From: an uncultured Planctomycetota bacterium
Lineage (GTDB): Bacteria > Planctomycetota > Planctomycetia > Gemmatales > Gemmataceae
Direction of reading: 5' to 3'
NCBI GenBank assembly: GCA_963849325.1
Contig: CAWKHF010000001.1
Coordinates: forward strand, 416,001 to 480,000
DNA length: 64,000 nt
The notes under the pieces: generated by a model
Database searches by the model: none
Told to the model about the DNA's origin: nothing
What the model saw: only the letters and a program-made list of their open reading frames with translations
Made by a program: the position numbers and the translations under genes
Shown here: positions 41,264 to 60,671 of the stretch, in pieces
Numbering within the stretch: position 1 is the first letter of the stretch
Layout: every line of letters begins with the position of its first letter

Positions 41264-41433
41264 TAAGGCAGTGCCAGGTTTCTCGGTAACCACGACACGA
41301 AATGGGCGGTCATAGGGAACCGCTTCAAGTGTCGCGGAATCCAACGTCGGAACCACAATCGGTGTGATCCGATTGTCCGAGGCCTCTGTGTCAGGCCGCC
41401 GGCGACGCGAACCCCTTCTTGGCCTGCCCATGC

Positions 41434-43766
41434 CTAGCTCCTTGTTCGTTTCCACCCTGTGCTGACATCATAAAGTTGAACGGCGAGGCTCATTGGGACA
41501 TGAACGATCTGTGATTCTTGCGACGCCTGGTCAATAGAGTAACCATATCGCTTGGGAACCTCAACGATCCGTTGCCCTAATTCAGGCTGCAGTTTCCGAA
41601 GCCGTCCCCGGCGCTGTCCAGGATCGGATAGCGCGTTCGCTTCCCGGAACTGCCGCCAAACGTCGGCGTCGGCAATGTCAACTTCGACGAAGTGCGCAAC
41701 CGCATCCTGACGTTCGTCGATGAGTCGAACCGCTTTGTCTTGGTCCTTTGCATCGATTCCTTCCCCACGGAGAGAGGCAAACTCCCACTGCTGAACCGCC
41801 TCCATGACCTTGTGAAAGGTGTCCGACCCGGTTCGGCTGGCGACGAGCCTGAAATATTCACCCACGCTCTCTTGGAGTCTTGGCTCGGGTACGGGCGTCC
41901 CTTGACCGGCAGCTCTTTCCAGAACCTCTCGCGGCACCCATCTCCTTGTTGCCATAGATCAGGTTGCCGGTATCTCCTTCCACTCTGACCAGGAAAACCT
42001 GGCCGCGGCGTCCCGTGCCGTGCCGGTTACACCGTCCGGCGGCCTGAACCACGGCGTCTAGGGGGGCCAGCGCTCGGAAAACCACGTCGAAGGACAGATC
42101 GACACCTGCCTCCACCACCTGAGTGGCGATGAGAAGATGCGGCCTACCGTGGCACTTTACGATCTGTTGTAAGATCTTCTTCCGGTCCAGCGGTCGCAAG
42201 TTTGTGGAAAGGTGAAAGACTGGATTATCGGAAACGCCGGGCAGCACCTTACCAAGGCGCATAGGTCGAGGGCTTCCTGGATGGTGTTCACGATGACAAG
42301 GCAAGACGGCTGCTTCGGGTCCGTTACCACATTGCGAATCCGATCAGCCAAGGCGACGAGGCTCACTGGCTGCCCCGTCTGCACATGGAGGTCGTAACGG
42401 TCGAATGCAACCGCCAGCGTTTCAGCCAAGGTCGGGCGCAGCTCGCTCACATCGGTTGCCTCGAAGATGGCCGGTTGGGTAGCCGTTACCAGCAGTACAT
42501 CGGTTCCCCATTGATCGCTCAGTGCTCGCAGCGCGGTGTTGATAAGCCGCCAGAACTTGGCGGGGATGGCTTGCACCTCGTCAAGGATTAAGATGGAACC
42601 AGCCAGGCGGGCAAATCGCCTCGTGTCGGCGACAGTTCCGTGGAACAGGGCGTTTACGACCTGGACGAACGTAGTGCAGATGATGTCGGCTCGCCATCCT
42701 TCGACCCAACTCCGAGCAAGCGACTGCTCGCCGCTCCGCGCCAGCTCGCCCGGCTCCGCGACGTGGTGGTGAACTGCCAGAGTGCTTTCGTCTGGCTCGT
42801 CATCTCCCCATATGCGGCGCAGCACAGACGCGTTCTGGTCGATGATGCTTGTAAACGGCAGCGCGTAGACGATCGGGCACGGGGGAAGGCCAGCGCCAAT
42901 GCGCGCCTCGCGACGCCGGAGCGCCCACCCCAGGGCCGCGAGGGTCTTCCCCGCCCCAGTGGGAACCGTCAAGCTCCATAGGTGGCCCGAGTCGAGCTGG
43001 TCGGAGGTTTGCCCGATCCACGGCGGCCTGATACACGTGTTCTCGTGCCTGAACGACACGCGGGTCGGCCGCTGGACCGAAGTTGGCGGCGGTTCGGAAC
43101 CGCTCCAAGTGGGCAATCGTGAATCGAAGGGGTGCTTTGAAGAGATCAGGTGCGAACCCTGTCGCGGAATCTCGATCTGCCTCAATCAACAGGCCGAACC
43201 AACGCAGCGCGTCCTGGAACCTCTTCATGGCGGCCAACCCGGATGGCCCTTGCCGAAAAGCGGTAGACGAGCTGCACCCGCAGCTTGGCCCATCGCAAGT
43301 CGAGGTCCGGCTTCTGGACCGGCTCGCCAAGACTTGCGGCAAGCCAGGTCGCCGCGCCTTCAAGATCCAGGGCTTGAAGTTGCTTCGCCCACAGGCCACG
43401 CGCCACATCGTCGGATGGGGGCAGTGATTCCAGCGCGTTCTTCAACCCCGTGTGGTGGTGCGCCACCATCAGATACGCCAAGACCGTTTGGTCTATGGTC
43501 AGGCCATGAGCGGCGACCTTGGGTAACAGGTGGTTAAGCAGCCAGACGGCCCCAAGGTGGGCGTGCTGCTTCAACCGGAGATCGCTGACAGGTTGACCCT
43601 TCAGGTAGTGCTGGAAGTGTTCTGTCCCTTTTGCCACGTCATGGAACAGGCCGGCGATCCGACCCAACCAGCCACAGGCGGTTAGCCGATTCGCCACGTC
43701 TTGAAGGTGGCCGGTCAGGGGCTTGCCTGGGTGCGATTCACAGAGCCGAAAAGCAGGTGCCATCAT
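41434..43766 (-). CDS. cas3: Cas3 HD nuclease-helicase (several frameshifts)
   Basis: SHP..HL, FHDVAK and HH in the HD domain; PTGAGKT, DEVQ, TAT, ATQVVEAGVD and QAAGRCNRHG. Confidence 0.92.
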
Positions 43767-44475
43767 CGCACCTCCAATACGTGCGCATGGTAGCCGTGAT
43801 CGAGCCGCCGGTCGTTTCAAGTAGGTACTCTTCGTACCGCTCCACCTGCCGCGTCGGCAGCATTTCGGCCGGCATGCGAATCCGCTGGTAGACGGCTTCC
43901 TCGTCCCAACGAATGTCCTGTAGATCCGCGGTGCGGATGGGCGATACAAAACGCTGATGCCCGGCCCCGTCGCGGACCTCCTCCGCCTGAACAGTTCGGA
44001 CCACATCCCCGAACCATGCGATCATCCATGCCAGACCGAGGCAAGGGGTGTAATTCGTCATGCCCCGGCGCAGGGTCGTCGCCAACCGCGAACCGAGTTC
44101 GGGATGGCTGAACCAAACCCGATACCGTGGCTCGCGGATGATCTCATACCGCATGATCGTATGCGGGTTCACCGACTTGGGCCGGAAGGTCTGGATGCCA
44201 AGCACGGTCGGCGTTCCCTTGGTGTCGAGAAGGTTGAGCGAAACGTGCCCGGTGCGCAGCGGCGCGAGCATCTGGAGGGCGAATATCGCCTGGGAATCCC
44301 GAAACTGCTCCAGGGAATCATTCTTCGGCAGCCCCAGCACCGCCCCGACGAGACCACAAAGCGCCGTTCGCGGCGGCGCCGGGAAGCTCAGCGCCGTCGT
44401 GATGGCGTACGGCCGCCGGAAGTGGGCCATGTCCGACAGCACATCGAAGACAATGAACTCGCGCGGCATGGTCAT
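43738..44475 (-). CDS. cas5: Cas5 (I-B Cas5h-like)
   Basis: AHFRRPY..TALSFPAPPRTALCGLVGAVLG and YTPCLG. Confidence 0.92.
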   Translation of the reverse strand: MTMPREFIVFDVLSDMAHFRRPYAITTALSFPAPPRTALCGLVGAVLGLPKNDSLEQFRDSQAIFALQMLAPLRTGHVSLNLLDTKGTPTVLGIQTFRPKSVNPHTIMRYEIIREPRYRVWFSHPELGSRLATTLRRGMTNYTPCLGLAWMIAWFGDVVRTVQAEEVRDGAGHQRFVSPIRTADLQDIRWDEEAVYQRIRMPAEMLPTRQVERYEEYLLETTGGSITATMRTYWRCDDGTCFSAL

Positions 44476-45473
44476 TCCAGGTTTAGTGCTTCGGCCGGCA
44501 GGCCCAGGAAGATCCTGTCCGTCGGCTCCGAGGAAAAAGGCAAACGTTTGTCCCAGGCGTAGCGGACTCGTTCGATCCGCTCCTTCTTCCTGTCCAGGGC
44601 CGCCGCGAGTTCACCGAGTTGAAGCGCCACCTCGCGCACTTCGCGGATCTGCTCATCGCGGAGCGTCTGCCTACCTTCCTTCGCCGTTGCCGTGATGGTC
44701 AAGAACCGATCCAGCCGGCCGATGTACGCATTCGGTTCCTTGTATTCGATGACCAGCAGCAACAACGGACGCTGACCGATCTTGGATCGGCTGATGAGGT
44801 TTTTCGTCCCGTACCATATGCCTTTGTACAGTTCCTCGACATCCGCGTCCGTCAGTTTGGTCGTTGTCGCCGCTTGCTGGTTCACGATGCCGTAGAAGGC
44901 GATGAGGGCGTAGGGGAGGATGTACTCCTCGCGGAATGTCCTCTGCTGAGCGCCTTGACCTGACGCGAACGCACCGGTCCCCTTGATGAACCGTGGTTCG
45001 ACGCGGTGCAGGCTGGTACCCATTGCGAACTGAACCGGTCCTGTCAGCGTGACGCTGGAGTCTTTTTCATTTTTTTGGATTTTGGAAACCGGAATCGTGG
45101 CGCCGAAGAGCCGCACGTCGATGCACTCCTTGATGACGCCGGCCTGAATCAGGTCGCGCTTCTGTAAGACATTCGTGGCCTTTTCCCTGGCTTCCTTGGC
45201 GACCTTCTGGAAAAAGTCTTCCGCCCGGTCCTTCCCCTCTTGGATGGTGCCGTCCGGCTTCTCGATCTCCCGACAGAAGATCTCCTGCTTGCCGTAGTCA
45301 TGCAAGTAGTCGCGGATCGTGCGCTTCAGACGCACGTCGGACACTTTGGCCCGGCCGGTTTCCAGGTCCATGCGCGGCCGATTCTCGTCGTTGGGGTCGC
45401 CGTTGGGGTTGGCGTCCGTGATGTCGTAGACGAACAGAATCTCGCTGCGCCGGCTGACCGTCTCAGTCTTCAT
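44472..45473 (-). CDS. cas7: Cas7 (Csh2 family, type I-B)
   Basis: NPNGDP..ENRPR, SDVRLKRTIRDY, DVRLFGAT, TGPVQF and SRSK. Confidence 0.95.
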   Translation of the reverse strand: MKTETVSRRSEILFVYDITDANPNGDPNDENRPRMDLETGRAKVSDVRLKRTIRDYLHDYGKQEIFCREIEKPDGTIQEGKDRAEDFFQKVAKEAREKATNVLQKRDLIQAGVIKECIDVRLFGATIPVSKIQKNEKDSSVTLTGPVQFAMGTSLHRVEPRFIKGTGAFASGQGAQQRTFREEYILPYALIAFYGIVNQQAATTTKLTDADVEELYKGIWYGTKNLISRSKIGQRPLLLLVIEYKEPNAYIGRLDRFLTITATAKEGRQTLRDEQIREVREVALQLGELAAALDRKKERIERVRYAWDKRLPFSSEPTDRIFLGLPAEALNLE

Positions 45474-47383
45474 GGATTCGTTTCCTCACTGGTTGCGGGT
45501 AAGGTTCCTTCGTCTTCCTGTTCCTTGGCGAGCCTAGATCGCAGGGCGTGCCCCAGGGCGAAGTAATAGGAGATGTCGTCCGGGCCCAATGTCCAGCGTT
45601 CCGCCGTCGCGGCCAAAGCGGAGGCAGCGCAGCTCAGCAATCCGCTGACGATGCGCTCCTTGTCGGGGCCATATGCCTTGGCTTTGTCCTTGGCGGCGAT
45701 GAACAATCGCTGAACGTCTGGTTGGTTCAAGCGGAAGCCCTTATACTTCCCCTCGAAGGGCGTCGATCCGCGCACCAGGCTCTGGATCGTCTCGATTCGT
45801 CCGCAGCACGCCCCGACCAGGAAGGCTGCCTGGGCAGCGGGGTCGGTACGAAGCCGGCTGGTTTCCGGCGCTTGCTGGAAGAAGTGGCGGACACGATCCG
45901 CCTGCTCGTTACCTCCGTAGTCCACTATCATAGTCGGCTGGCTCCTTTCGTTGTCTCCTCTTGTAAGTTCCTCAAAAAACAGAAGCGACCGGAAGAGATC
46001 GGCGAGCCTGAACGGCCAAGCCTTGCCCTCCAAGTAGTCTTCTTGAACCCAACGCATCCCGATCTCGACCATGCGGTCGGCGCGATGTGGTCGGATCTCC
46101 AAGGCTGGCGAGTGGCTGAAAGAAAGTCATCGTCGAAGGTGCTACCGCCGCGTGCCGCAGGATAGATGTTTCTGAAGCAGCCGAAGGTAAACCTCCCTTC
46201 GGTGAAGGTCTTTGGGCTCGGCGGTTGAAGCCAGGGATGACGATCAACCCGATCCTGCGCACGGAAGAGTTCCCGGAATCGGGACGGTAGTAAGCCGAAC
46301 ACGGTAGAGCGCTGGCCGGAACGACTGCGGGTCGGGTTGGTAAAAGAGCAGGTCGAGTTGTAGCCGGTTGTTCTCCTCCGCAATGATCTCGAACAGGTCG
46401 TCCTCCGCATCCGTGAGCCGTTTCGATGCCTTGCGATCCACACGAGCGCTGGCTAATCGGTTCAGGGATTGGTAGGTGTCGGTCGCTGCCAGCCGCACCG
46501 AGGCCGGCAACATCAGATACTTGAAGCCGTAGTAGTTGAAAGAGAGATCCCTTTTGATTCGTTCACCGGAGAAATCAACCTTGTCACAGCACTCGCGACA
46601 GGCGGGAAAGTTCCGCCAGGCGTCCAGCGCATCGAAACCTCCTGACACAGAGCCGGGTTTGTCCAGCGTGTAAACCTTGAACTGCTGGATTTGGAGCAGG
46701 CCAGATACCTCGGCATCCCGTCTGCCGCAGATACAGCACTGACCCACGCCCTTGACATCACCCCCTATGCCCTTCTTCTTTGATGCAGCTTCCGTCCCTT
46801 TGCGGACTAGCGCCTGCTGGAAGGCTTTGAAGTCACCAACCCATCGGGCCTCGCCTTCCGAAGGCCGCCAGGCCACCGAGAGGATCGCTGGTTTCGTCAG
46901 ATCGGGGTGGGCTTCCCGCAAGCGGATGAAGATGGCCGATCGAGGATCGCTGCCCGCTGACCCCTGTTTGTCCTTGGGAGACTGCAAACGGTCGCGCATG
47001 ACGGCAAGCGCCTCGCACTCGCATGTCGGTAGGTCTTCGCACTGCTCCAACGCTTCATTGATGCTGCGAGCAAGCCGGCTGAGTTTCTTGCCGATTTCCC
47101 CATCGGCCGTGTTCTCCTTGCCCTTCTTGACAGTCGCCATTCCGGTCGTCGGCGTCGCGTCCCACCCGTTCGGCGGTCCTGGTCGGTAGAGGCAGCGCAA
47201 ACGGCGACCCTCGTCGTATTCGTCCACCTGCACCCCCTCAAAGCCGTCGGATGAGAATACGAGCAGCAGGATTTCCTTGGTGCGAAATTTGGCCGACGGG
47301 TCGGCCGCATATTGGATCAGCTGGTCCTTGACCCCTTCTCGTTCGAGGTAGAACTGGCCGAGTTCGGCGAATTGATGTATCAC
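45470..47383 (-). CDS. cas8b: Cas8b large subunit (Csh1/TM1802-like), frameshifted
   Basis: CCICG...YTLDKPG...NFPACREC Zn motif; C-terminal AFLVG...Q...YYFALG Cas11-like region; first gene of the cas7/cas5/cas3 operon. Confidence 0.85.
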
Positions 47384-47544
47384 CGGGTAGACCCTCTTGA
47401 TAGCCCGCGATTGTCGAGTCAGCCGCCACCCGCTTTACGGTCACCACGTCCTTGGCACTCACCTCCGTCGGTTGGCTGAGTTCTCACTTGGTCCATGCGC
47501 TTCGCGCACGAACGAACGATCTACAGCCGATCCTCGGTGAGGTG

Positions 47545-47550
47545 TATAAT
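47545..47550 (+). promoter_or_regulatory. Candidate -10 box for mini-array 1 / TA operon
   Basis: Perfect TATAAT in GC-rich DNA, flanked by CTACAGCCG direct repeats at 47521 and 47554. Confidence 0.5.
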
Positions 47551-47598
47551 GTCCTACAGCCGGGCCCGCGAGCATACAAGGGCGGTAGCAGAAATCGC

Positions 47599-47710
47599 CT
47601 TCTCCACGGTCTTCGGGCCGTGGCCGCTTTGAAGCAGGCGTCTGCCAGTGGGACAGTTGACCGACCATAGTGAGTTCTCCACGGCCTTCGGGCCGTGGCC
47701 GCATTGACAG
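47599..47710 (+). CRISPR. Mini-array 1: two degenerate repeats and one 38-bp spacer, opposite orientation to the main array
   Basis: Repeats at 47599-47635 and 47674-47710; spacer at 47636-47673. Confidence 0.9.
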
Positions 47711-47779
47711 GTGCTGCCGACCATCGCCCCTTTCTCTCCCGTACCGTCCGCCCGGTCAGGAGATTGCCGGAGACTGTCC

Positions 47780-48007
47780 ATGACCACCGTTTCCCTTTCG
47801 GAAGCTCAAGCCCATCTGCCGGAACTGTTGGAAAAAGTCGCGGCCGGTCAGGAGGTCGTCATCACGCGCGATGATACGCCGCTCGCCTTGATAACGCCCA
47901 TTTGCACGGCCAATCCGCAACCGCGGTTCGGCAGCTGCAAAGGAATGCTCTCCATCGTGAGTGATGATGAGGAACACCTGGAGCACTTCAAGGAGTACAT
48001 GCCTTGA
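47780..48007 (+). CDS. Phd/YefM-family antitoxin
   Basis: MTTVSLSEAQAHLPELLEKVAAGQEVVITR. Confidence 0.9.
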   Translation: MTTVSLSEAQAHLPELLEKVAAGQEVVITRDDTPLALITPICTANPQPRFGSCKGMLSIVSDDEEHLEHFKEYMP

Positions 48008-48390
48008 GGCTCCTGCTCGATACGCACACGTTCCTCTGGTTTACGCTCGGCGACACCCAGTTGAGCCCCACAGCGCTGGCCCTCATCAATGATCCGGGGA
48101 ATGACAAGCTTATCAGCCCAGCCAGCTACTGGGAGATAGCCATCAAGGTCAGCATCAGGAAACTGGCCCTGAACCAGCCCTTCGAGGACTTCCTCGATCG
48201 CGGAATCCGGCAGAACGGCTTCAAAATTTTGCACATCGACCTGCGACACACGGCACGCGTGGTCACGTTGCCGTTCCACCACAAGGATCCGTTCGACCGT
48301 CTGCTCATCGCCCAAGCGTTGACCGAGGGCATCGCCATCGTGGGGGCTGACACGCTCTTCGATCAGTACGGCGCGACGCGGTTGTGGTAG
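48004..48390 (+). CDS. vapC: VapC-family PIN toxin
   Basis: LLLDTHTFLW, S.WEIAIK and HKDPFDRLLIAQA; 4-bp overlap with the antitoxin. Confidence 0.93.
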   Translation: MRLLLDTHTFLWFTLGDTQLSPTALALINDPGNDKLISPASYWEIAIKVSIRKLALNQPFEDFLDRGIRQNGFKILHIDLRHTARVVTLPFHHKDPFDRLLIAQALTEGIAIVGADTLFDQYGATRLW

Positions 48391-48408
48391 GGCAGATGTC
48401 GGGCCGTC

Positions 48409-48693
48409 TTACACCACCACAACCACATCCTTCGCATCGGCCGCCTCCGTCGGCCGGCCGAGCGCCTCGATCGCGTTCACGCACTTCGCGCACAGCGGGA
48501 TGAACAGCACCTGATCCTGCTCCAAGTTGATGAGATCATACAGCCGCGACCGCAAACGTACAAAGTCGGTAGCGGACAAGCGACACAAAAACACCGAATA
48601 TTGCTTGCGGTAGCCGAAGTCCTCGCACACCGTCGCCACCTTGCGCAGACGTTTCGGATCGCTGATGTCGTAGGCGACGAGGTAGCTATCCAA
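48409..48693 (-). CDS. cas2: Cas2
   Basis: [16 protein letters not shown]...QYSVF. Confidence 0.95.
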
Positions 48694-48742
48694 GGATTAC
48701 CCCTCACCCTACCCTCTCCCCAAGGGGCGAGGGACGATCGGC

Positions 48743-50462
48743 TCACCGCACCGTGAAGCCCGTGTACGCCGGCACCGAGCCGCGCACGTACGCGGCCAGC
48801 ATCCGCGCCTGCACCTCCAGCATCCGCGAATAGCTCATCTTGTAGCCGTACACCGGGTGCGTCACCACCGTCGCCTTCCGCTGCTCGTAGGCCTGGAAGA
48901 ACTTCCGCCGGCCCGAGTCCGTCAGCTGACACGCCTCGCGCCACACCAGGAAATCGTCCGGCGTCAGCATCTCGTTGTTGATCAGCGTCAGCACCACCGA
49001 GTCGGCGATCACCGGGCGGAACTCCTCCATCAGGTCCAGCGCCAGCGACGGCTTGCCGTGGCGGTTGGAGTGGAAGAAGCCCTTGTACGGGTCGAATCCC
49101 ACCGTGCAGACCGCCGCGAAGCAGTCCTTCGTCAGCATCGCGTAGGCGAACGACAAGCAGCGCGTTCACCGGGTCGCGCGGCGGGCGGCGGTTGCGCGTC
49201 GTGAACTCGAAGCCGCGGCCCGGCGGCTGCACCTGCAGGAAGCGGCCGAACTCGCCGAAGTACAGCGCCGCTCCCTGCCCCTCCAGCCCCAACACCGTCT
49301 CCAGCGGACGCGGCACTGTCCAACCGCCGGATCAGGTCCGCCAGACCCCGCGCGGCCGGCTCGTCGCTGCCGCGGTCGCCGTCGCCGCGCAGGCTGCGCA
49401 TCAGCAGCGCCCGCTGGTTGGTGAGCTTGGCCCGCACCACCGCCTTCGACAGCGTCAGGCACTCCGCGGCGTCGGCGAAGCGGCGGAACTGCGCCTCGCG
49501 CAGCCCGACGTTCTTGCGCTCGGCCGGCGCGAACGTGCCGATGAACCGGCCGTAGCCCGTCAGGTAGGCCACCGGGATCTCGTTCGTCACCAGCGTCTCC
49601 AGCGCCTGCGTCGAAACCTGCACGTTGCCGAAGACCACCACCTGCCGGATCGCGTGCATCGGCACCCGCGTCACCTCCTGGCCGTCCTTGCGGACGACCA
49701 GATGCTCGCTGCGCTTGCCGACGTGGCTGCCCGGCTCCTGCACGTACAGCACCGCGCCGTCGTCGGACTGCGGGATCACCCGCGTCAGGCCGGGCGGCGG
49801 CGAGGCCGTTTCCTCGGCGGCCGGCGGCAGGCCGATCTGGTAGAGCGTCTCCTCCGGCAGACAGACCGGGGCCAGCGAGCAGCCGAAACAGCGGTGCCGC
49901 AGCTCCGCCGGCAGCGGGTCCGGCGGGGCGTCCAGGGCAGACAGCCGCCGGCATTCGTCGATGGCCGTGCGCGTCTTCGCCCGCAGCTCGTCGCGTGAAG
50001 CGGACCTCGACGCGCTCGCGCGTGCCGGCGTAGAACTGGAAGCCGCGCTGCACCGGCGCGCCGAACGCTTCTTCCATCAGCAGCGCCTGGCCGCACAGCT
50101 GCACGGCGTCGTTGTCCCAGGTCGTCGGCCGGCCGTCGTCGTCGCGCGGGGCGGAGCCGTGCTTGGTCTCCACCGGGTAGGACACGCCGTCCTTCTCCTC
50201 GATCACGTCGAGGACGCCGCTGATGCCGAGCGTCTCCGACGACAGGTGGACGCCGCGACTGCGGTTTGCATCGCCTTCCTTGCGCGTCTTGTTGGCCAGT
50301 TCCGGCTCATCGACGCGGCGGTGATCGAACAGGCCGGCCTCGACGTGTTCGTTGGTGCGGCATCACGGCATCGACGTACTGGAGGTAGTAGAGGCGCGGG
50401 CAGTAGGTGACCTGGTTCAGTGCGCGCAGGGGGATCATCTGGGCGTCGGTCGTTGCGGTCAT
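48743..50462 (-). CDS. cas1: Cas4-Cas1 fusion (several frameshifts)
   Basis: N-terminal YCPRL, PVETK, QLCGQ and C..CSL..VC (Cas4); C-terminal [18 protein letters not shown] and [12 protein letters not shown] (Cas1). Confidence 0.93.
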
Positions 50463-50490
50463 GATTCACCTCAGAGAGTCCGAGTAAGGG

Positions 50491-52407
50491 TTAATCCACC
50501 ATCCGCAGCTTGCAAGGCGCCGGATCCATAGCCACCAGGAGCGGCCGAGAAAGGTGCGTGAAACTGACCACCGCCTGACCCGGCGCCAGTCCCGGGATGC
50601 GGCTCCACAGCGACTCGTCGATGCCGCTGATGGTATGTCGCAGGTTCATTAACACCTGCGGGTCGGTCAGCTTGTGCAGCACAAAGTTGTTGCACAGCGA
50701 CAAAACCTGACGGGGCAAGTGCGCGGGTAACTGTGTCACGAACACCAGCCCGAGCCAGCGCTTCCGGCCGCGCTTGGCGATGCGGGCCACTTGCTGGAAC
50801 AGCGTGTCCATCCGCTCGATGCGATCCGCACTGAGGAACTCGTGCGCTTCCTCAATGATGAGCAGGACGCGAGGAACCGGCGGGTCCTGCCCCGCGGCCT
50901 TCGCCTTCTCGTAGCGGCGGTAGGCATTTTCTTGGGCTTTCTGAACGCCGCGCATCAGATCGGCGATCGCAAAATTCGCCAGTTCCGTCATGCCGGTGTC
51001 CGAAAGGTCCACCACGGAAACCTGACCCGGTGCGATGAGCTGGTCGTAGTTCAGCGGCGGAGCGCCGCGTTTTTGCAAATGGCGATCAAACACTTTCAAG
51101 CGATTCAGCCGCCAGAGCAGGCTCTTGACCTTGCCCCACGAGGACGCACTGCTCAGTTCCTTTGCCTTGATGTGTTTCTCCAACGCCGCGCGGCCGGCGT
51201 CGGTACGGAGCACGGCGTTGTATGGCTCGAAGCTCGTTTTGCTCACCGTCGCCAGACACTTGCCGACCACGTCGAGCAGCAGCGACAGCGTCAGGCGGGG
51301 CCAGCCGCGCTCGAACTCGTCGATGCGGAGCAGCAGCTGTTCCTGCTTGTCCACTTCTTCCTTCGGCTTGTCCCGTTGTGGGAAAATGCCGAGGTCGCGC
51401 ATTATCGCCTTGGTGATTTCGTAGGCCGGAAGAAACCGCTCAGATTGAGCATCGTTCATCCCCAGCATTTCGATAACCGCGTGCGGAGAAAGCGCGGCAA
51501 ACTGGAGCGAGAACTCGCTGCGGTTTGGATGGCGCGGGTTCGTGGACTCACGACCGACAAGGTGGTACAGCCGCATGGAGTCCGCGGGGATGCCGGCTGG
51601 CGACAGGCCACGCTCCTGCAAGGCGTCCAGCATCGTGCGGTGATCGGCCGGTTCGTGCAAGTGCGTGTATTCGCCCTCGACATCCAGCAGAATGACGGTC
51701 ATCCCCACGGCCTGAGCTTGCTGGATCAAGCCCGCCACCGTCGTCGATTTGCCGCCGCCCGTTGTACCGAGGACCGCGACGTGGCGCGGCAGCACGGCCT
51801 TCTTGTCGGACGGTACGTTGACGATCACCTCGCTCGCCCCAACCACGGAACCCAGCCGGATGTCGCCATCGGTGTGCAGGACTGCGGCTACCTCCGATTG
51901 CGTCAGGGCAACGACGGGGCTATTGGGCAGCGGTCGCAGGCGCGGCGGAACCAGCGAGCCGTTCTTGAGTTCCTCGCCCAGAATCGAGACCGTCGCGCGG
52001 CCGTGGTAGGGCGGCAGATAGACGCCGCCGCGCGCCGTCACGGTGACGAGCAAATGCGAGTCGGCCCGTAGCGTGTCCGGTTCAGCAAAGGGACCGGCGG
52101 TCACGATGCCCAGGTACTTGCGCCCGTCGCAGCTCTTGATGCGCACCAGGGATTGCGACGGCGCCTGTTGGGCGTGATCGCGCGGCAGCAGGACCGTCAC
52201 GCTGCCGTCTTCGCTGCCGGGCAGGTCGAACATGGTCGCGCCGATGGCGCCTTCCCGATCCGGGTCGGGAGCCAACTCGCCGCCGGCACGGGTTACGTCG
52301 GCTTGGACCTGCTGGAGCAGATCCTCCGGCGGACGGGCGATGCCCAGGTCTTCCTGGCCGTTGTCGTGTGCCGTCCTAGGCGTTGGTCGCGTTGTGGGTG
52401 CAGGCAT
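50491..52407 (-). CDS. HerA-like FtsK/HerA-superfamily ATPase
   Basis: N-terminal HAS-barrel-like region, GTTGGGKS, DVEGEY, IIEEAHEF and RIAKRGRK..LVFVTQ. Confidence 0.88.
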   Translation of the reverse strand: MPAPTTRPTPRTAHDNGQEDLGIARPPEDLLQQVQADVTRAGGELAPDPDREGAIGATMFDLPGSEDGSVTVLLPRDHAQQAPSQSLVRIKSCDGRKYLGIVTAGPFAEPDTLRADSHLLVTVTARGGVYLPPYHGRATVSILGEELKNGSLVPPRLRPLPNSPVVALTQSEVAAVLHTDGDIRLGSVVGASEVIVNVPSDKKAVLPRHVAVLGTTGGGKSTTVAGLIQQAQAVGMTVILLDVEGEYTHLHEPADHRTMLDALQERGLSPAGIPADSMRLYHLVGRESTNPRHPNRSEFSLQFAALSPHAVIEMLGMNDAQSERFLPAYEITKAIMRDLGIFPQRDKPKEEVDKQEQLLLRIDEFERGWPRLTLSLLLDVVGKCLATVSKTSFEPYNAVLRTDAGRAALEKHIKAKELSSASSWGKVKSLLWRLNRLKVFDRHLQKRGAPPLNYDQLIAPGQVSVVDLSDTGMTELANFAIADLMRGVQKAQENAYRRYEKAKAAGQDPPVPRVLLIIEEAHEFLSADRIERMDTLFQQVARIAKRGRKRWLGLVFVTQLPAHLPRQVLSLCNNFVLHKLTDPQVLMNLRHTISGIDESLWSRIPGLAPGQAVVSFTHLSRPLLVAMDPAPCKLRMVD

Positions 52408-52423
52408 AGCTGTTCTCCTCTCC

Positions 52424-53698
52424 TCAATCGTGACGAGTCGTGCGTTCGCTGAAGTAGCGCCAGGGCGCACCGGCCGCAGCGTAGGCCGTTTCGGTCAGGT
52501 GGTGCAGACTGCCGCCGAACACCGAATCGCAAACGTGATGGGCCAAGTCGATCAGCAGCGGGAAGCCGCGCTCTTCTTGGAACATGCTGTCGGCCAGCAC
52601 GATATGGGCGGCGAAGTGAGCGTGGTCCACATGGGCGTAGAAGAGCTGCGCTGGAGCCAGGATCGAGGCGCGGTACAGGCCAACCACCACTTGCGACGCG
52701 ACACGCTCGATGAAGCGTGGTATCCATTCCGGCGGGGACAGCCGCTCGCCGTCCCAGAATAAGTCCCCGGAGGATTCCATCGTGAATCGGCGTTGTTGGA
52801 ACCAGCCTTCCAGACGCGGAGCCAAGTTGCCGAGGATGGCGTAATGCAGCGGAGGCAGCGCCTGGCCAATGGTCAGCGCCAGCAGTTCACGGGGCTCACT
52901 GGCCACGAAGACGAATTTGCCGTAACCCTCGATCAGTTCGCGCATCATCCCGGTCGCGGCGACCATCAATTCCAGGATGTCGGCGCCAGTCAGCAATTCG
53001 TAAGTGATCGGATTGCCGTGGCCCATCCGCCAAACCGCCCTCGATTGGCGGAGGAGAATGGCCCGTTCGGCGTAATCCATGACAGCCTTCCTCGCCAATT
53101 CGCCGAGTTGGTCGCTCGGCGTTCCGTGGTTGAGGGCGGCTCGTTGGTCGCGGCGTCGGAGCAGCTCTAATACCTCATTAAGGTCCGCGGGGCCGCGTTG
53201 CCGCAGGTCGCGGCGGAAGAGTCGCTGCTGCCATGTGCCTTGATCGCCAGCGTAGGATACCAGCGAAACGCCGACCTGGTAGATCGTCAGAGGCAGCGTA
53301 GCATGTACCTGAACCGTCCCGTCACACGCTTCCACACCGCCGTTAAATAACAGGCCGCGATGAATGAGGGCGAGAATGTCCATGTTCGCGGTGAAGACGC
53401 CGCAGCCCGGTGCCGAAGCTGGGTCGATAAGCTTTGGGAAAACTTCGCTGCGAATGCACCGTTGGTACTCGTCCTCCTGGGCGATGGCCTCACGCACTTC
53501 GCGCTCGATACGCGGATACTCCTGCGCCAGGTCTCCTCCCAGCCGCCATGTGTTCACATCGAGAACCCGTTGCAACTCCTCACCGAAGCTCGCTCGAAAC
53601 TCGGCGGCGGTTGCCGGTTCCGAAGGCAGGCGCGTCGGCGACCGTGCCGCGGCCGACACGGGGGATGCTGCATCGTCTCGGGATGTGGTGGTTGCCAT
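52424..53698 (-). CDS. NurA-like nuclease
   Basis: ACDGT, ER, HGN (in place of the usual second DG) and GFPLLIDLAH (NurA-like GYP..L..AH); immediately upstream of herA. Confidence 0.65.
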   Translation of the reverse strand: MATTTSRDDAASPVSAAARSPTRLPSEPATAAEFRASFGEELQRVLDVNTWRLGGDLAQEYPRIEREVREAIAQEDEYQRCIRSEVFPKLIDPASAPGCGVFTANMDILALIHRGLLFNGGVEACDGTVQVHATLPLTIYQVGVSLVSYAGDQGTWQQRLFRRDLRQRGPADLNEVLELLRRRDQRAALNHGTPSDQLGELARKAVMDYAERAILLRQSRAVWRMGHGNPITYELLTGADILELMVAATGMMRELIEGYGKFVFVASEPRELLALTIGQALPPLHYAILGNLAPRLEGWFQQRRFTMESSGDLFWDGERLSPPEWIPRFIERVASQVVVGLYRASILAPAQLFYAHVDHAHFAAHIVLADSMFQEERGFPLLIDLAHHVCDSVFGGSLHHLTETAYAAAGAPWRYFSERTTRHD

Positions 53699-53834
53699 CG
53701 TTCGTTCTCCCACGCGCTTTGCCGGCACCCTCGCGCCTGACTATACTCTCCTGGATTAAAGTGGTCGCGCCCGTCCCTTGTCCGTGGCCCAGTTCTTTGA
53801 CAATTGAACCGCATCGCCTTGCCACCTCGACGAG

Positions 53835-53946
53835 GTTCTCCACGTTCTTATGAACGTGGCCGCATTGAAGATCCCTCACTACTTCCCGACATGCGCGACA
53901 AAGTTCGACATTCTCCACGGTCTCATGGCTGTGGCCGCATTGAAGT
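53835..53946 (+). CRISPR. Mini-array 2: two diverged repeats and one 38-bp spacer
   Basis: Repeats at 53835-53871 and 53910-53946 keep TTCTCCACG...GTGGCCGCATTGAAG; spacer at 53872-53909. Confidence 0.85.
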
Positions 53947-53984
53947 GTAAGCAATCCCGCAAGCTCGCCGTGGCAAGCCAACGC

Positions 53985-54719
53985 TCAGGAGCGCAGTCGC
54001 TGGAGCAACGGATCTTCCCGGACGGGCGGTAAGAGGAGACGGCTATAGTCCTTAGCCTGCTCCTGCGGCAGACCGAAATCGGCTTGCAACACTTCCGCAA
54101 GTCGGATTCTTCCTTCCACACCCGAAATCGACCCGGCTCGCGCCCATACGTCGGCGGCAGGCGCCAGCAGTTCGTAGGCGACCTGATCGGCTTCCTCTTC
54201 GGCCAGCGTGATGGTCGCGTGAAGCACTTCCCGGCGCGGGCCACGCCGCATCAAATGCAGATGAAAACCGAGGGAAATGCTTTTCAAGAGCGCATGAAGA
54301 CACTCCTCTGGCGTCGGCGGGCGCTCCCCGTCCAGGACTTCCACGATTCGTTTCCCCAAGTAGCGGCACGCCCGCCGCCGAGGATGCCAGTAATGTCGCA
54401 GAAAATGAGCCAACTCGTGTGCCAGTGAGAAACGCTGGTCGTCATCGCTGTCGGTTCCGTCGAGAAAGATCAGTCCATGACCGAAATGGGCCGCCAGGCA
54501 AGCCCGCAACGGACGATCCGCTTCGTCGCAACGACAGGCGATCCCGTTCCGGCACAACCAGTCACGGACACTATCAAGCCGTAAATGCGGCAGCAAGACG
54601 ATGGATACCGGCAGCGCCCGGACTATGGGCCGGCGTAATTCACGAGGGAAGGATTCGTCCAAGCCCGCAGCCGCCCAGAACTCACGGATCAATTCCGCGA
54701 TCCACAGCGGCACTCTCAT
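53985..54719 (-). CDS. ImmA/IrrE-family Zn metallopeptidase
   Basis: QRFSLAHELAH (HExxH) and EEEADQVAYELLAP. Confidence 0.88.
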   Translation of the reverse strand: MRVPLWIAELIREFWAAAGLDESFPRELRRPIVRALPVSIVLLPHLRLDSVRDWLCRNGIACRCDEADRPLRACLAAHFGHGLIFLDGTDSDDDQRFSLAHELAHFLRHYWHPRRRACRYLGKRIVEVLDGERPPTPEECLHALLKSISLGFHLHLMRRGPRREVLHATITLAEEEADQVAYELLAPAADVWARAGSISGVEGRIRLAEVLQADFGLPQEQAKDYSRLLLPPVREDPLLQRLRS

Positions 54720-55099
54720 GACTTCGCTCCTTGCGGCGGAGTGTCTTCCGTCGTATTGTCTCGCGCCGCTAACAGGAATCCTTTCTCGCTGTTTTGGCCG
54801 CCGGCGCCAATCCGAAGCCGCAACAGGCTGTGACCCCGCCTGGCAACCTCGGCCAAGACCTCAGCATCGAGCGAGAAGCGCTGCGCGATCTTTTCGACAT
54901 CTTGCCAGAACAGAGGGGCCTGCGCTCGGGGCATCCGGCACAGGCGCAGATGGGTGAGGATTCCCTCGGAACAACCGAGCCGGATGGCCAATCCGGCATC
55001 CTCAAGCTGTTCGCTTCGGGCATACTCCGCCAGCGCGCTGGCGAAAAAATCGGGAGCATCGGCGACACGCAGGGCCAGGTGTTCCAGGTACGGATTCAT
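54716..55099 (-). CDS. Small hypothetical protein, possible HTH repressor or anti-sigma
   Basis: LAIRLGCSEGILTHLRLC HTH-like segment and C-terminal LLAARD; 4-bp overlaps with both neighbours. Confidence 0.55.
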   Translation of the reverse strand: MNPYLEHLALRVADAPDFFASALAEYARSEQLEDAGLAIRLGCSEGILTHLRLCRMPRAQAPLFWQDVEKIAQRFSLDAEVLAEVARRGHSLLRLRIGAGGQNSEKGFLLAARDNTTEDTPPQGAKS

Positions 55100-55731
55100 G
55101 CTTTTCTCCCGGCTCGCTCCAGCATCTTCTTTAACCGATCCTTGTTTCGCTTCACCTGCCGGAATTGCTCTTTCGCAGGCAGGTGCAACAAACCGTAGAG
55201 TTCGGCGAAGATTTTGGTCCGGCGTTCCTTCCGCAAAATCAAATCCAGCGCGCGGGAGTCGGTTTCGGACAAACCTTGGCAGACGGAATTTGAGATGGAG
55301 TTCATCGCGCTCTCGTCTTCCTCAGCCACTCGCATCGGGAGTGACGGATCGTCATGGCGTCCCAGATACTTCCCGGCCTCCTGCGAAAGTTCGACACTTT
55401 TCCACGAAACCCGGCCTTTGTTGTGTCTCCGTTCTTTATCGAGAAGGTTGCGCAAGTCTCCGCGGGCTGACATGCGCAGGTACACTTCCAGGGTCTGCCG
55501 TTCCGGAGAGTACGACCGCGGATTACGAATCAAAGCCAGCAGGGCATCCTCCGCAGCCTCGATGCGGACATCCGGAGGCACGCTCGCGTCGGTTTTGGCC
55601 AACCAGGCGACGAGCGGTTCCAGGTAGGCGTCAGCCAGATCATTCGGGGCAGTTGGATCATCAGCCAGGAGGCGCTGATGAATTTCAAGCGCGTTCGGTT
55701 GCCTGGGTGTTAAGGCGGTAGGACGGGCCAT
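55096..55731 (-). CDS. Sigma-70/ECF-like factor
   Basis: AAEDALL...Y..ER.TLEVYL...DLRN region 2-like; LSETDSRALDL...VKRNKDRLKK region 4-like. Confidence 0.65.
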   Translation of the reverse strand: MARPTALTPRQPNALEIHQRLLADDPTAPNDLADAYLEPLVAWLAKTDASVPPDVRIEAAEDALLALIRNPRSYSPERQTLEVYLRMSARGDLRNLLDKERRHNKGRVSWKSVELSQEAGKYLGRHDDPSLPMRVAEEDESAMNSISNSVCQGLSETDSRALDLILRKERRTKIFAELYGLLHLPAKEQFRQVKRNKDRLKKMLERAGRKA

Positions 55732-55939
55732 GTTCTACAGTCCTGCGGATCGGTGTCGGGGCAGTGCTCAAGCAGCTTGGTCACCTGCCGGAACTTGGGC
55801 AGTATAAATCAAGTCACAGCTTAACGCGCAGGACCGGCGTATCAAGCACAAGTGGCTGAATTATCCCTACGTTGGCGCGACCTTATCGACCGAGCAAACC
55901 TATCACCAATCGCTGGACAATCGGCATCCGTGACCGCAC

Positions 55940-56168
55940 CTTGGGCTCCAGGCCGGAAAGGCGGGGCGATGGAGCGGGGCTTCTCCGGGATGGTGAGCGA
56001 CACCAGGTCCAGTTGGCCCAGCCGGTCCAACTTGAGGAAGGAGCGAATCAACGGAAGCTTCAAATCATCCAGCTCGGCGTGATGGTTGATCCGGTCGTCG
56101 AACGGCACCGTGGCGGTCAGGGCCATCAGCTCGCGCGGCTCGCCGTTCCGCGCGTCGAGACTGTCCAC
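55940..56168 (-). pseudogene. Collapsed fragments of an ATP-binding/transcriptional regulator (AlbA/RecG-C-like) gene
   Basis: VPFDDRINHHAELDDL..LIRSFL fused to LTIPEKPRS. Confidence 0.45.
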
Positions 56169-56417
56169 ATCAACCCTGGCCTGACAGTGACGAAGGCCGT
56201 ACTGGAAGCCCTCGGCATTGTGGCTCCGCCGGAGAAAACCGCCCCGGCGGCGATCCGCCTTTCTCGCCGCGCTTGTCCATCACAACGCATAAACAACCGC
56301 TTATCACGGAATCCGCACGGAATGGGTGGAAACCACGGTATTTCATGGAATTCCGGCTTTTCTACCAACATTATCCGTAACTTTAACTCGATATACAGTA
56401 ACAACTTAAATCAATCA

Positions 56418-57455
56418 TTATGTTGAAGCCAGAATGTGCATAATGTCGCCGTCCTGGACAACGTAGGTCTTGCCCTCCAGCCGATAGACGCCGTGCGTCT
56501 TGGCCTCCTTCATCGAGCCGACGCGCTGAAAATCGTCGTAGCCGACGACCTCGGCGCGAACGAAGCCGCGAGCCAGGTCGGTGTGGATCTGTCCCGCGCC
56601 GACGACGGCGTCGGCCCCCTTGGGCATGGCCCAGGCCCGGCACTCGTCCTCGCCGACGGTGAAAAAGACGATCTGCCCCATCGCGGCGAAGATGGCCCGC
56701 AGCACCTCGTCGCGCACGAAACCCTTCAGTCCCAGGTCGTTCATGAACATCTGCCGATCTTCTTCCGGCAACTCGTGCAGCTCCAGCTCCAGCTTGGCCG
56801 GCGCTTGCAGGGCGCCGGGGGCCAACGCCAGCAGGTCGGCCGGCAGCGGCTGGTTGAGCCGGTCGTCGCCGAGGTTGACGAGTACCTGTTCCGGCTTGAG
56901 GGTGAGCAGCTGAAAACTGCGGATGGCCTTCTCTTCGTCGTCCTTGAGTCCCAGCGTGGCCGGCGACTGGTTGTGCTCGAAGGCGGCGGCGATGCGTTGC
57001 AGCAGGGCGATCTCCTGTTGATCGGCCTCTTTTTGCTTGGCCGGACGCGGTTTGCGCAGTTGGTCTTCCAGCCGGCTGACGCGGTTGCTGACAATCTCCA
57101 GGTCGGCGAACATCAACTCCTCGCGGAAGCGGCGCAGCTGGCCGGCGAGGTCCGGCTCGTTGAAGCCGTTGAGCACGACGAGCAGGCCGCCCGACTCGCG
57201 CAGGATGCCGAGACGGCGCGGGTTGTCGCGTCGCTCGGTGGCCAGCAGGCCCGGCGTGTCGAGGAACTCGATCGTCGCCGGCGTCGTCTTACGCGGCTGA
57301 AACTTCGCCGACAGCCAATCGAGGCGCGGATCGGGAATTTTGGCGATGCCGGTCTGTCCCGTCTGGCCCTTGGACGGGTCCGGCTTGACGCCGCTGAGCC
57401 ACTGGAACACGCTGCTCTTGCCCGAACCGGCGAAACCGACGATGCCGACTTTCAT
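56418..57455 (-). CDS. ychF: YchF/Obg-like ATPase with DUF933 C-terminus; island insertion target
   Basis: GFAGSGKS, DTPG, FFTVGEDE, IHTDLARGFVRAEV and YVVQDGDI; shorter, divergent paralog type. Confidence 0.88.
   Translation of the reverse strand: MKVGIVGFAGSGKSSVFQWLSGVKPDPSKGQTGQTGIAKIPDPRLDWLSAKFQPRKTTPATIEFLDTPGLLATERRDNPRRLGILRESGGLLVVLNGFNEPDLAGQLRRFREELMFADLEIVSNRVSRLEDQLRKPRPAKQKEADQQEIALLQRIAAAFEHNQSPATLGLKDDEEKAIRSFQLLTLKPEQVLVNLGDDRLNQPLPADLLALAPGALQAPAKLELELHELPEEDRQMFMNDLGLKGFVRDEVLRAIFAAMGQIVFFTVGEDECRAWAMPKGADAVVGAGQIHTDLARGFVRAEVVGYDDFQRVGSMKEAKTHGVYRLEGKTYVVQDGDIMHILAST
56428..56449. repeat. att core copy 2
   Basis: Identical to 16396-16417. Confidence 0.9.
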
Positions 57456-59610: not shown

Positions 59611-59667
59611 CCCGATCACCACGGCGAGCGGAACGCCCTCCGCTCGCCTCATCCTGGAGAACGACCC

Positions 59668-60138
59668 ATGAACGCCGACGCCAAGCAGCTGTCACTCGCC
59701 TTGACCGCCCCATTCCCCGCCGAGGCGGTCCACTTCAAACCGCTATCGGTCAAGGGCAACCGCGCCCTCGCCGCCGCCTACCTCGACGCTCGCGCCGTGA
59801 TGCAGCGCCTCGATAACGTTTTCGGCGTGGGCGGCTGGAAAGACTCGTACCAGCTGGTCAACGGCGGGTCCGTGGTCTGCACGCTCTCGGTCAAGGTCGA
59901 TGGCGAGTGGATCGACAAGACGGATGTAGGCTCCCCCAGCGAGCAACCCGATGAAGGCGACCAATTGAAAGCCGCTTTCAGCGATTCGTTGAAGCGGGCC
60001 GCGATCAAGCTGGGGATCGGCCGCTATCTGTACCGTTTGCCGCGTCAGTGGGTGGACTACGATCCGCAGACGCGACAGTTCATCAAGCCGCCGCAGCTGC
60101 CCGCGTGGGCGCTGCCCTCGGCGAAGCAATCAGCCTGA
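59668..60138 (+). CDS. Rad52/Rad22-family ssDNA annealing protein
   Basis: AYLDARAVMQRLDNVFG..GW, K.DVG and KAAFSDSLKRAA..LGIGRYLY. Confidence 0.88.
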   Translation: MNADAKQLSLALTAPFPAEAVHFKPLSVKGNRALAAAYLDARAVMQRLDNVFGVGGWKDSYQLVNGGSVVCTLSVKVDGEWIDKTDVGSPSEQPDEGDQLKAAFSDSLKRAAIKLGIGRYLYRLPRQWVDYDPQTRQFIKPPQLPAWALPSAKQSA

Positions 60139-60145
60139 GATGGCG

Positions 60146-60235
60146 GGGGCGGTAGCTCAGTGGCGGAGCATCGGGGCATGACGCCAGCATGGAGGCGCTT
60201 ACCGATGGTCGCGGGTTCGATTCCCGCCCGCCCCG
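60146..60235 (+). tRNA. tRNA-like RNA with abnormal, enlarged anticodon arm (identity undetermined)
   Basis: Acceptor GGGGCGG/CCGCCCC, D-arm GCTC/GAGC, T-arm GCGGG-TTCGATT-CCCGC; about 27 nt between TCGG and CCGA. Confidence 0.7.
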
Positions 60236-60271
60236 ATTCACTTGAACCCTTTTCCCTTCGGAGTAACGACC

Positions 60272-60643
60272 ATGACGAAGATGTTCCTCGACCCGCTGCC
60301 TCCGGCCGTCGTTGATTTTGAATGGCTCCGCCGGCCGTTCGGCCCGACCCTCGACCCGCAACGCGATCTCCCCGGCGTGCTGCGCATCGGCCGGCGCCTG
60401 TACTCCGTCTGGGGCATCGGATGGAACGAGCCGGGCGGACCCCGCGCGGTCGGGTTCGAGCTGTTGGATCAGCAGACAAACCGGACCTACAACATCTTTC
60501 TTGAGTGGTGGGGACCGGAATGCGATTGCGGGGAGGGCCGCTTTCACTTTCGAGCCGGCGGTTGCCGTCACATTGTCAACGTCCGGGCCGCGTTCGACGC
60601 CCTAGGATGGAAGGTCGTCCTCCCCCGGAGACCGGCAGCATAA
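60272..60643 (+). CDS. Second SWIM-like zinc-finger protein
   Basis: Y.I...ECDC...GCRH. Confidence 0.6.
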   Translation: MTKMFLDPLPPAVVDFEWLRRPFGPTLDPQRDLPGVLRIGRRLYSVWGIGWNEPGGPRAVGFELLDQQTNRTYNIFLEWWGPECDCGEGRFHFRAGGCRHIVNVRAAFDALGWKVVLPRRPAA

Positions 60644-60671
60644 ACGACACAAACGATAAGGAGAGCGGGAA

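Follow-up and report, generated by a model that had tools for sequence, protein, structure and literature searches.

RecBCD and AddAB are helicase-nucleases that degrade DNA from its ends and supply substrates for new spacers. Passages in three papers link another pair, the nuclease NurA and the ATPase HerA, to CRISPR: nurA-csm6-herA paralogues of Thermoproteales adjoin CRISPR loci, and a role in adaptation was proposed for them (Bernick 2012, PMC3396285); HerA/NurA were listed as "type III coevolved" (Shah 2019, PMC6546367); and NurA and HerA appear as "putative CRISPR auxiliary genes" (Altae-Tran 2023, PMC10910872, in supplementary file 2 and in the legend of Fig. 6). In the regulatory modules outlined by Lau 2022, capH, which encodes a helix-turn-helix (HTH) protein, and capP, which encodes an M78 peptidase, switch an immune operon on after DNA damage, and a sigma-70-family factor accompanies them in 24 systems of the cyclic-oligonucleotide-based antiphage signaling (CBASS) type. 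Single-stranded DNA (ssDNA) activates CapP according to a 2026 preprint, and IrrE/PprI is described as governing the Deinococcus damage response and as sensing ssDNA. The subject of this study is a bacterial locus in which these two kinds of genes come together with CRISPR adaptation genes. It lies in a window of 64,000 nt (G000:C1:416001-480000) from the 8.16-Mb, 14-contig genome of an uncultured planctomycete, designated G000, and consists of three putative regulatory genes, a nurA-like gene and herA, followed by a cas4/cas1 fusion gene (cas4/1) and cas2. We found that a short cis-element is shared between the nurA-herA cassette and cas4/1.

The four genes named in the initial annotation are all on the minus strand. 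The nurA-like gene (52424-53698; ATG at 53698, end of the stop codon at 52424) encodes a NurA-fold nuclease of 424 aa, and its start agrees with the lengths of its homologues, 411-431 aa. It is followed after 16 nt by herA (50491-52407; ATG at 52407), which encodes a HerA-type hexameric ATPase/translocase of 638 aa, after a further 28 nt by cas4/1 (48743-50462; ATG at 50462), and after 49 nt more by cas2 (48409-48693; Pfam CRISPR_Cas2, E 6.8e-23). These coordinates, strands, and gaps agree with those given earlier, as does the toxin-antitoxin pair that separates the group from the effector operon. The description of the four genes as one co-oriented unit also holds, except that it had overlooked three more minus-strand genes, co-oriented and with a coding GC pattern, upstream of the nurA-like gene.

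The spacer between the M78 peptidase gene and the nurA-like gene is unusually long in the window, and its inspection revealed a bipartite element, GTCGAACTTT-N10/11-CGGGAA(GTA). One copy, GTCGAACTTT-N11-CGGGAAGTA (53880-53909, minus strand), is located 211 nt upstream of the nurA-like ATG. The other, GTCGAACTTT-N10-CGGGAAGTA (55367-55395, minus strand), lies inside the reading frame of sigL, the sigma-like gene at the head of the cassette. The exact element occurs only these two times in the whole G000 genome, both within the cassette. We then used a survey of 201 sampled genomes of the family, in which up to 20 kb was fetched around each of 55 nurA-like matches and genes were mapped by tblastn; together with the window this gave 56 loci, of which 47 were informative and 9 were on contigs that were too short. 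A search of the 56 loci for the second box plus the 10-mer, with at most one mismatch in the latter, gave 52 matches. The reversed pattern had none, and 20 shuffled 10-mers had 0-3 each. Fifty of the 52 matches fall at four defined places, all in sense orientation: 24 lie upstream of the nurA-like gene and 13-14 within the frame of the sigma-like gene, 8 stand upstream of a DUF2130 gene that is followed by cas4/1, and 4 are directly upstream of cas4/1 itself.

The presence of the element before cas4/1 varies with the arrangement of the locus. The initial annotation, which had proposed that a NurA-HerA pair generates prespacers for adaptation, turned on whether homologues are linked to cas1 and whether cas1 has a separate promoter. 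On the first point homologues are linked, and the refuting outcome was not seen: in the neighborhood survey, cas4/1 was within ~7 kb of the cassette in 34 of the 47 informative loci. In 24 of these the order is tandem, with cas4/1 downstream of herA on the same strand (gap of ≤50 bp in 10 loci and ≤200 bp in 16; one locus has a cas4/1 remnant alone and one has cas3g in between). In the other 10 it is divergent, with cas4/1 facing the sigma-like gene, one of them again with a remnant alone. All 10 divergent loci have the element before either DUF2130 or cas4/1. Tight tandem junctions have none before cas4/1, except for L099, which has a 134-bp gap and its own copy; L099, L074, and L077, whose tandem gaps measure 134-1026 bp, are the three loci of this order in which a second copy precedes cas4/1. 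Overall, either cas4/1 or a DUF2130 gene ahead of it is preceded by the element in most of those loci in which cas4/1 is not close behind herA. Thus, where cas4/1 has an upstream signal of its own, inspection of the sequence identified that signal as the element of the cassette.

Loci in which cas4/1 and the cassette are apart gave a similar picture. Of 20 cas4/1 loci without an adjacent cassette, three (in G183, G130, and G083) have the element before cas4/1, and each of these genomes has the cassette at another place, which in G183 and G130 is 43-50 kb away on the same chromosome. The element was found before cas4/1 in none of 15 loci from genomes without the NurA-like gene, including four whose cas4/1 belongs to the same lineage (61-72% identity). 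These placements bear on one explanation of the neighborhood, that it is meaningless and reflects one ancestral chance juxtaposition inherited vertically. The tandem order is found across the whole NurA tree and could indeed derive from a single event. Gene order has, however, been rearranged (in the divergent clade and in L079) and cas modules have been exchanged, yet the element stays before cas4/1, and among the sampled loci it does so only in cassette-bearing genomes. We consider chance juxtaposition very improbable. As judged from the sequences, the predicted co-regulation of nurA-herA with cas4/1 is well supported, and the shared element is the strongest evidence for a functional tie between them, at the level of regulation. 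The copy inside sigL, which encodes V-E-L-S...G-K-Y-L and lies ~295 nt before the HTH-like gene, may act as an operator or as a promoter within the gene, or may be a coincidence of coding.

The nuclease was recognized by its structure. An AlphaFold model of the NurA-like protein was confident (pLDDT 87.3, pTM 0.85) and had a NurA-type RNase H-like fold. The protein matched no family at E ≤0.01 in Pfam (including PF09376), NCBIfam, or PADLOC, and a profile built from 47 homologues found no NurA and nothing in PDB. The earlier label "NurA-like" is therefore upheld by the fold of the model and has no counterpart among sequence families; we regard the product as a probable NurA by modeled fold and context that is outside the Pfam NurA family by sequence. 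Candidate active-site residues, chosen by their conservation in the alignment, are D126, E211, H227 (in the GHG turn), D370, and D384. The HGN motif reported in the initial annotation is present within GHGN at residues 226-229, and H227 is retained in 34 of 47 aligned homologues.

HerA was assigned by sequence. Its central domain matched HerA/DUF87 (PF01935) with E 2.6e-18 and 67.4 bits against a cut-off of 23.2, HerA_C matched with E 3.8e-11, and the PADLOC HerA models, the best at 9.5e-30, were the only PADLOC models to match within the cassette. The NCBIfam HerA equivalogs (archaeal repair and anti-phage) scored 100, 91, 85, and 74 bits, none of them reaching its cut-off, which lies at 800-970. 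In an alignment of 45 sequences, Walker A residues G214-G217, G219, and K220 were invariant, and S221 and the Walker B-like E519/E520 were nearly so. Tblastn placed herA directly after the nurA-like gene in 50 of the 56 loci, and the two products would be expected to form a complex; a complex prediction with HerA 45-638 and NurA-like 29-424, run with alignments, scored 0.01 against a mark of 0.32 and speaks neither for nor against binding.

The three genes upstream of the nurA-like gene are arranged compactly. The first gene of the cassette, sigL (55096-55731, minus strand), encodes a 211-aa protein that we assign weakly as sigma-70/ECF (extracytoplasmic function)-like: Sigma70_r2 matched with E 0.0038 in G000 and also matched 16 of 41 homologues (best 9.6e-7), every score being below the cut-off or close to it, and a profile found the ECF sigma factor 9isn_F in PDB (E 0.0073) with no match to region 4. 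The second gene (54716-55099, minus strand) overlaps both neighbors by 4 bp and encodes a small HTH-like protein of 127 aa, a candidate CapH-like repressor. HTH_31 matched weakly in two of its homologues (E 0.0028 and 0.042), the atlas lead was an XRE cluster at 0.84, and its profile found no relatives in PDB. The third gene (53985-54719, minus strand) encodes a 244-aa CapP/IrrE-like M78 zinc peptidase, which matches PF06114, has the HExxH motif with a downstream Glu, and has the CapP/IrrE fold, CapP being nearest. By tblastn, the sigma-like gene was found in 45 of the 56 loci, the HTH-like gene in 48, and the M78 gene (≥45 bits) in 49. The trio appears to be a regulator of the CapH/CapP(+sigma) kind and fits the published description, with weak HTH and sigma assignments. 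Inspection by eye revealed no motif shared by all the regions upstream of sigL. A plus-strand open reading frame (ORF) at 54954-55721 (255 aa, no family) was rejected as a shadow of two minus-strand genes because its GC pattern is 0.60/0.67/0.47, compared with ~0.65-0.70/0.43-0.48/0.66-0.69 for the minus-strand genes.

The reading that we favor, to which we give a little less than an even chance, is that a NurA-HerA cassette switched by DNA damage or ssDNA is co-expressed with Cas4/1-Cas2 and feeds adaptation. The trio would act as a CapH/CapP(+sigma) switch, whose studied counterparts turn immune operons on upon ssDNA; by analogy with these, the peptidase may cleave the HTH-like protein. The switch would drive nurA-herA from the private promoter-like element, GTCGAACTTT-N10/11-CGGGAA, which may be a promoter read by the sigma-like protein. 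The NurA-like protein and HerA would together be a motor-nuclease that degrades DNA from free ends. Co-expression of cas4/1-cas2 would occur by read-through where the gap after herA is short, as in the window (28 bp); where cas4/1 is farther off, it would in most loci start from a separate copy of the element. The likeliest use would be a role like that of RecBCD/AddAB, in which linear foreign or broken DNA is degraded and the fragments are trimmed and integrated by Cas4/1-Cas2, with the products of NurA-HerA serving as the prespacer supply.

The distribution of the cassette bears on this reading. The NurA-like family contains 486 representative clusters at E ≤0.001. It was present in 62 of the 201 family genomes, in 41 of the 116 of high quality, and in 3 of 8 in the genus; when its profile was run on 400 genomes from the phylum's other families, scoring 4 candidates in each, no member was found. 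The five-gene cassette (sigma-like, HTH-like, CapP/IrrE-like, NurA-fold, and HerA) is, as seen so far, restricted to the Gemmataceae-like family. Linkage to cas4/1 persists down to 30% NurA identity (L091-L093). Thirteen informative loci have no cas gene in range; five of these are outliers of 28-31% identity, and most of the five have no adjacent herA either. The neighboring effector is mostly of type I-G (Cas3g, with the helicase at its N terminus and an HD domain at its C terminus), and is I-B-like in the window and in L061. Cas1 was found in 54 of 62 NurA-like-positive genomes, compared with 59 of 139 negative ones (hand count). In the NurA tree, the tandem order occurs throughout and the divergent order forms one clade. 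Pairwise distances were strongly correlated for NurA-HerA (Spearman 0.72), NurA-M78 (0.70), and Cas4/1-Cas2 (0.53).

Several results weigh against a role in adaptation. Eight of the 62 cassette-bearing genomes have no Cas1, and only ~31 of the 83 best Cas1 rows were near a NurA-like match (hand count), so that most cas4/1 loci have no cassette. The NurA tree requires at least 7-8 changes to a state without cas genes nearby, two of them with cas4/1 remnants. Distances correlated weakly for NurA-Cas4/1 (0.23) and HerA-Cas4/1 (0.24), and the cassette and the adaptation module have been re-assorted and give no indication of tight co-adaptation. Nor can the 34 linked loci be counted as independent events, because they are kin and the tree is compatible with a single ancient juxtaposition. 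By our search criteria, five tandem loci with gaps of >200 bp (L062, L075, L076, L091, and L093) and L107 have no element before cas4/1. The sigma and HTH assignments are weak. Finally, the cassette was said to fit the very large array, an idea that the counts did not bear out: large arrays occur with the cassette (206 repeats in G000, 89 in G072, 86 in G153, and 82 in G104) and without it (143 in G172, 76 in G034, and 58 in G048). Since the count used one repeat-family pattern per genome, which misses other repeat families, and since short-read assemblies break arrays, we take this as no support rather than as refutation.

Many of these results would be explained by a self-standing, damage-inducible NurA-HerA defense of the TdpAB or HerA-effector kind, co-regulated with Cas4/1-Cas2 and handing nothing over to it, an alternative that the initial annotation had allowed for. 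The cassette would then be an innate nuclease against linear DNA, and co-regulation would mean no more than the joint activation of two layers of immunity. Because the cassette is retained in genomes without Cas1 and has outlasted a neighboring cas4/1 on at least seven separate occasions, it works, or at least survives, alone. It has its own regulators, clear boundaries, and the patchy occurrence described above, and CapH/CapP modules are known in effector-type immune operons. This explanation accounts for cas-less retention and for the weak correlation equally well, and less well for the placement of the element, which stands before cas4/1 or DUF2130-cas4/1, and not before effectors, even at the distances seen in G183 and G130. 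Neighbors in a defense island, moreover, do not as a rule keep 30-bp same-strand junctions down to 41% identity, and HerA excepted, the cassette matches no PADLOC model. We give self-standing defense a substantial chance, clearly below even. The two modules appear to have separate histories and to have been together for a long time, with the cassette often outliving the cas genes. Remnants were seen on both sides: a herA C-terminus lies upstream of cas4/1 in G183 (L121:2528-2614) and at a contig start in G180 (L107:1-219), and cas4/1 fragments lie beside intact cassettes in G143 and G199 (L056 and L077). These are traces of rearrangement and loss.

A third possibility is a DNA-repair module, in which an IrrE-like switch and NurA-HerA resection heal breaks, including those from spacer integration or self-targeting. 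A repair role was proposed for the archaeal nurA-csm6-herA cluster in the same paper that proposed the adaptation role (Bernick 2012). Published accounts describe end resection by NurA-HerA for recombination in archaea and Deinococcus, where the ssDNA-sensing IrrE/PprI controls the damage response. In G000, RecC, alpha-type AddB, and Pfam NurA were not found elsewhere with the queries used; the absence of RecC and AddB is weak evidence, and also tells less for an adaptation role than it might, because the assembly is 84.7% complete and rich in small insertions and deletions (indels). Most genomes of the family should have such a repair module, yet the cassette is in 31%, and it was absent from the 400 genomes of other families. 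Repair alone also leaves the element before cas4/1 unexplained. We consider this explanation unlikely.

The preferred reading, a switched NurA-HerA cassette that feeds adaptation, can be extended to an adaptation regulon, in which a sigma-like factor under an ssDNA-sensing protease switch would induce NurA-HerA, a DUF2130 nuclease of the PD-(D/E)XK type where present, and Cas4/1-Cas2 through one element. The ssDNA produced by resection could feed back on the switch, and a mini-array in G000 would add a Cascade-dependent brake. We find this extension possible and are doubtful of it as a whole. If it were true, the acquisition of spacers would be induced just at the appearance of ssDNA and free DNA ends, and a dedicated end-processing machine would feed it.

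The DUF2130 gene (PF09903, E 5e-59) is directly upstream of cas4/1 in several loci (L054, L056, L057, L059-L061, L063, L066, L069, L072, L091, and L124), for example at L060:12552-13823 on the plus strand. In the divergent clade it is placed under the shared element. DUF2130 is mentioned in a paper on the PD-(D/E)XK superfamily, and its product may be a further nuclease joined to the adaptation module.

The mini-array consists of two degenerate CRISPR repeats that bracket the element upstream of the nurA-like gene (53835-53946, minus strand; psiR1 at 53946-53910 and psiR2 at 53871-53835). Both agree with the array repeat at 31 of its 37 positions, and psiR2 has a perfect 8-bp stem through compensatory changes (-12.7 versus -12.0 kcal/mol). 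The repeats are private to G000; they are absent from L045, L046, and L047, where the spacer between the M78 and nurA-like genes is ~190 bp shorter. The first 10 nt of the bracketed stretch are the same as the site inside sigL. By analogy, this stretch may be a regulatory mini-array. In arrays of this kind, the spacer matches a promoter of the locus in part, over ≥10 bp on the seed side. As in the mini-arrays presented in Shmakov 2023 (10.1101/2023.03.03.530964) and in CreTA, two degenerate repeats surround a spacer-like stretch in a cas locus; unlike those, the stretch in G000 is itself a conserved promoter-like element in its native place.

The reading frame of cas4/1 in G000 requires comment. 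The initial annotation treated cas4-1 as a single open frame; in fact it spans five frame pieces, the frame being shifted by four 1-bp insertions (near positions 50357, 49994, 49307, and 49157) that are private as compared with three relatives. The pieces are 82-91% identical to an intact 585-aa ORF in L045, in which Cas4 matched at residues 14-201 (E 1e-15) and Cas1 at 238-540 (E 5e-96). This homologue places the gene in an adaptation module of type I-G style, a Cas4-Cas1 fusion followed by cas2. Cas1 of the window, in three Pfam pieces, is the only cas1 detected in the G000 genome, and cas8b and cas3 are likewise fragmented.

Similar breaks were found outside the cas genes. The rpoB gene (G000:C1:334967-338611) is broken into four frame pieces and rpoC into three or more, and the first 2.3 kb of the rpoB region contains at least seven private 1-2-bp indels in comparison with three relatives. 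Each kb contains ~3 indels in rpoB and 2.3 in cas4/1, compared with none in the 5-kb cassette from herA to the sigma-like gene, which has no private frameshift. Because the rpoB indels match the cas4/1 insertions in kind and density, assembly error is the simpler and most likely reading of the breaks. We did not adopt cas4/1, cas8b, and cas3 as pseudogenes; rpoB and rpoC are equally split. Real decay of the cas genes keeps some probability because the errors are patchy and the cassette is free of them. At other places in the window, a protein kinase gene and two genes for ECF sigma factors likewise appear to be cut, and another relative with few contigs, G153, has the same patchy indel problem. 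The G000 assembly, as noted, is 84.7% complete across its 14 contigs.

The surroundings of the locus were as follows. Between cas2 and the effector genes is a plus-strand pair (47711-48390) encoding a Phd/YefM antitoxin and a PIN (VapC) toxin (Pfam PhdYeFM, E 1.2e-8; PIN, E 1.3e-13); a Phd/VapC pair is at the identical place in L046, from the same genus (L046:4674-5284). The effector genes (40451-47383, minus strand; identified with Pfam, NCBIfam, and PADLOC) are cas8b in two pieces, cas7, cas5, cas3 in pieces, and a cas6-like gene whose match to Csb2, a protein of type I-G, is confined to the C-terminal, Cas6-like half. The set is mixed, with I-B-like Cas8b (TM1802), Cas7, Cas5, and Cas3 beside this gene and an I-G-style Cas4/1; most relatives have Cas3g instead. 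The CRISPR array (19192 to ~40177, plus strand) has a 37-nt repeat, of which 210 copies were found within 3 mismatches, plus an extra block of 36-nt variants. Its one gap, of ~2 kb (28163-30158), contains a 451-aa ORF on the minus strand (28355-29710), and a solitary CRISPR-repeat-like sequence occurs elsewhere in G000 (C12:38206, minus strand). On the right flank, past ychF (56418-57455), a Rad52/22-family gene and two tyrosine integrase genes (59611-62621, plus strand) are probably part of an integrated element. Scans of 47300-56500, which are uninformative for this phylum, gave 2 sigma-70 promoter-like sites against 1.6 expected and 4 terminator-like sites against 7.6 expected, none of either in the herA-cas4/1 or cas4/1-cas2 gaps.

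The locus offers a compact system, with a nuclease that annotation does not see, a CapP-like switch, and a 30-nt element that tracks the cassette before cas4/1. An adaptation role for CRISPR-linked NurA-HerA, proposed in 2012, can now be tested in a bacterium. The answer bears on the source of spacer substrates in bacteria without RecBCD or AddAB, and on whether and how infection or DNA damage induces the adaptation genes. If the coupling is real, this would be the first resection motor and damage-sensing switch built into the adaptation stage of CRISPR, and a new family for catalogues of defense finders and cas accessory genes.

Compared with known systems, the locus combines features that have been described separately. 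Like RecBCD/AddAB, the proposed motor-nuclease would degrade ends and act upstream of Cas1-Cas2; the proteins are unrelated, and here they are encoded with the adaptation genes and are apparently inducible. The HerA-NurA resection complex of archaea and Deinococcus (PDB 2ygk, 3tal/3taz, 9x1l-n, and 7f6d) has no detectable sequence similarity to the NurA-like protein of the cassette, in which a His replaces the Asp at the end of the GHG strand; in addition, the cassette has the regulator trio and cas4/1-cas2 and is without an mre11/rad50 context. A dedicated NurA-HerA paralogue beside CRISPR loci is shared with the CRISPR-linked cases cited at the outset, which are archaeal or from thermophiles, mostly of type III, with csm6 between the genes and a NurA that Pfam recognizes. 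The present case is bacterial, with a type I-G/I-B-like cas4/1-cas2, its own regulators, a shared element, and a nuclease invisible to Pfam. As in CapH-CapP(+sigma) (Lau 2022) and in IrrE/PprI-DdrO of Deinococcus, an M78 peptidase gene lies beside small HTH-like and sigma-like genes. Unlike CapH-CapP as it is described there, the trio is co-oriented with the genes that it would regulate, with co-transcription predicted in tandem loci, and the consulted parts of the CapH-CapP literature mention neither NurA-HerA nor CRISPR adaptation genes as regulated targets. The cassette also differs from the published outlines of TdpAB (PDB 8wfd), Sir2-HerA, and DUF4297-HerA in having no phosphorothioate genes, Sir2, or DUF4297, and from HerA-based defense in its scores for the anti-phage NCBIfam equivalogs (91 and 74 bits, against 800 and 850). 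Full-text literature searches did not find the bacterial arrangement of NurA-HerA with cas4/1-cas2 described, and preprint supplements may hold more. What is new in this locus is a nuclease family that sequence models do not recognize, its junction with a type I cas4/1-cas2, the CapH/CapP-like trio that precedes it, and the element that the cassette and the adaptation genes share.

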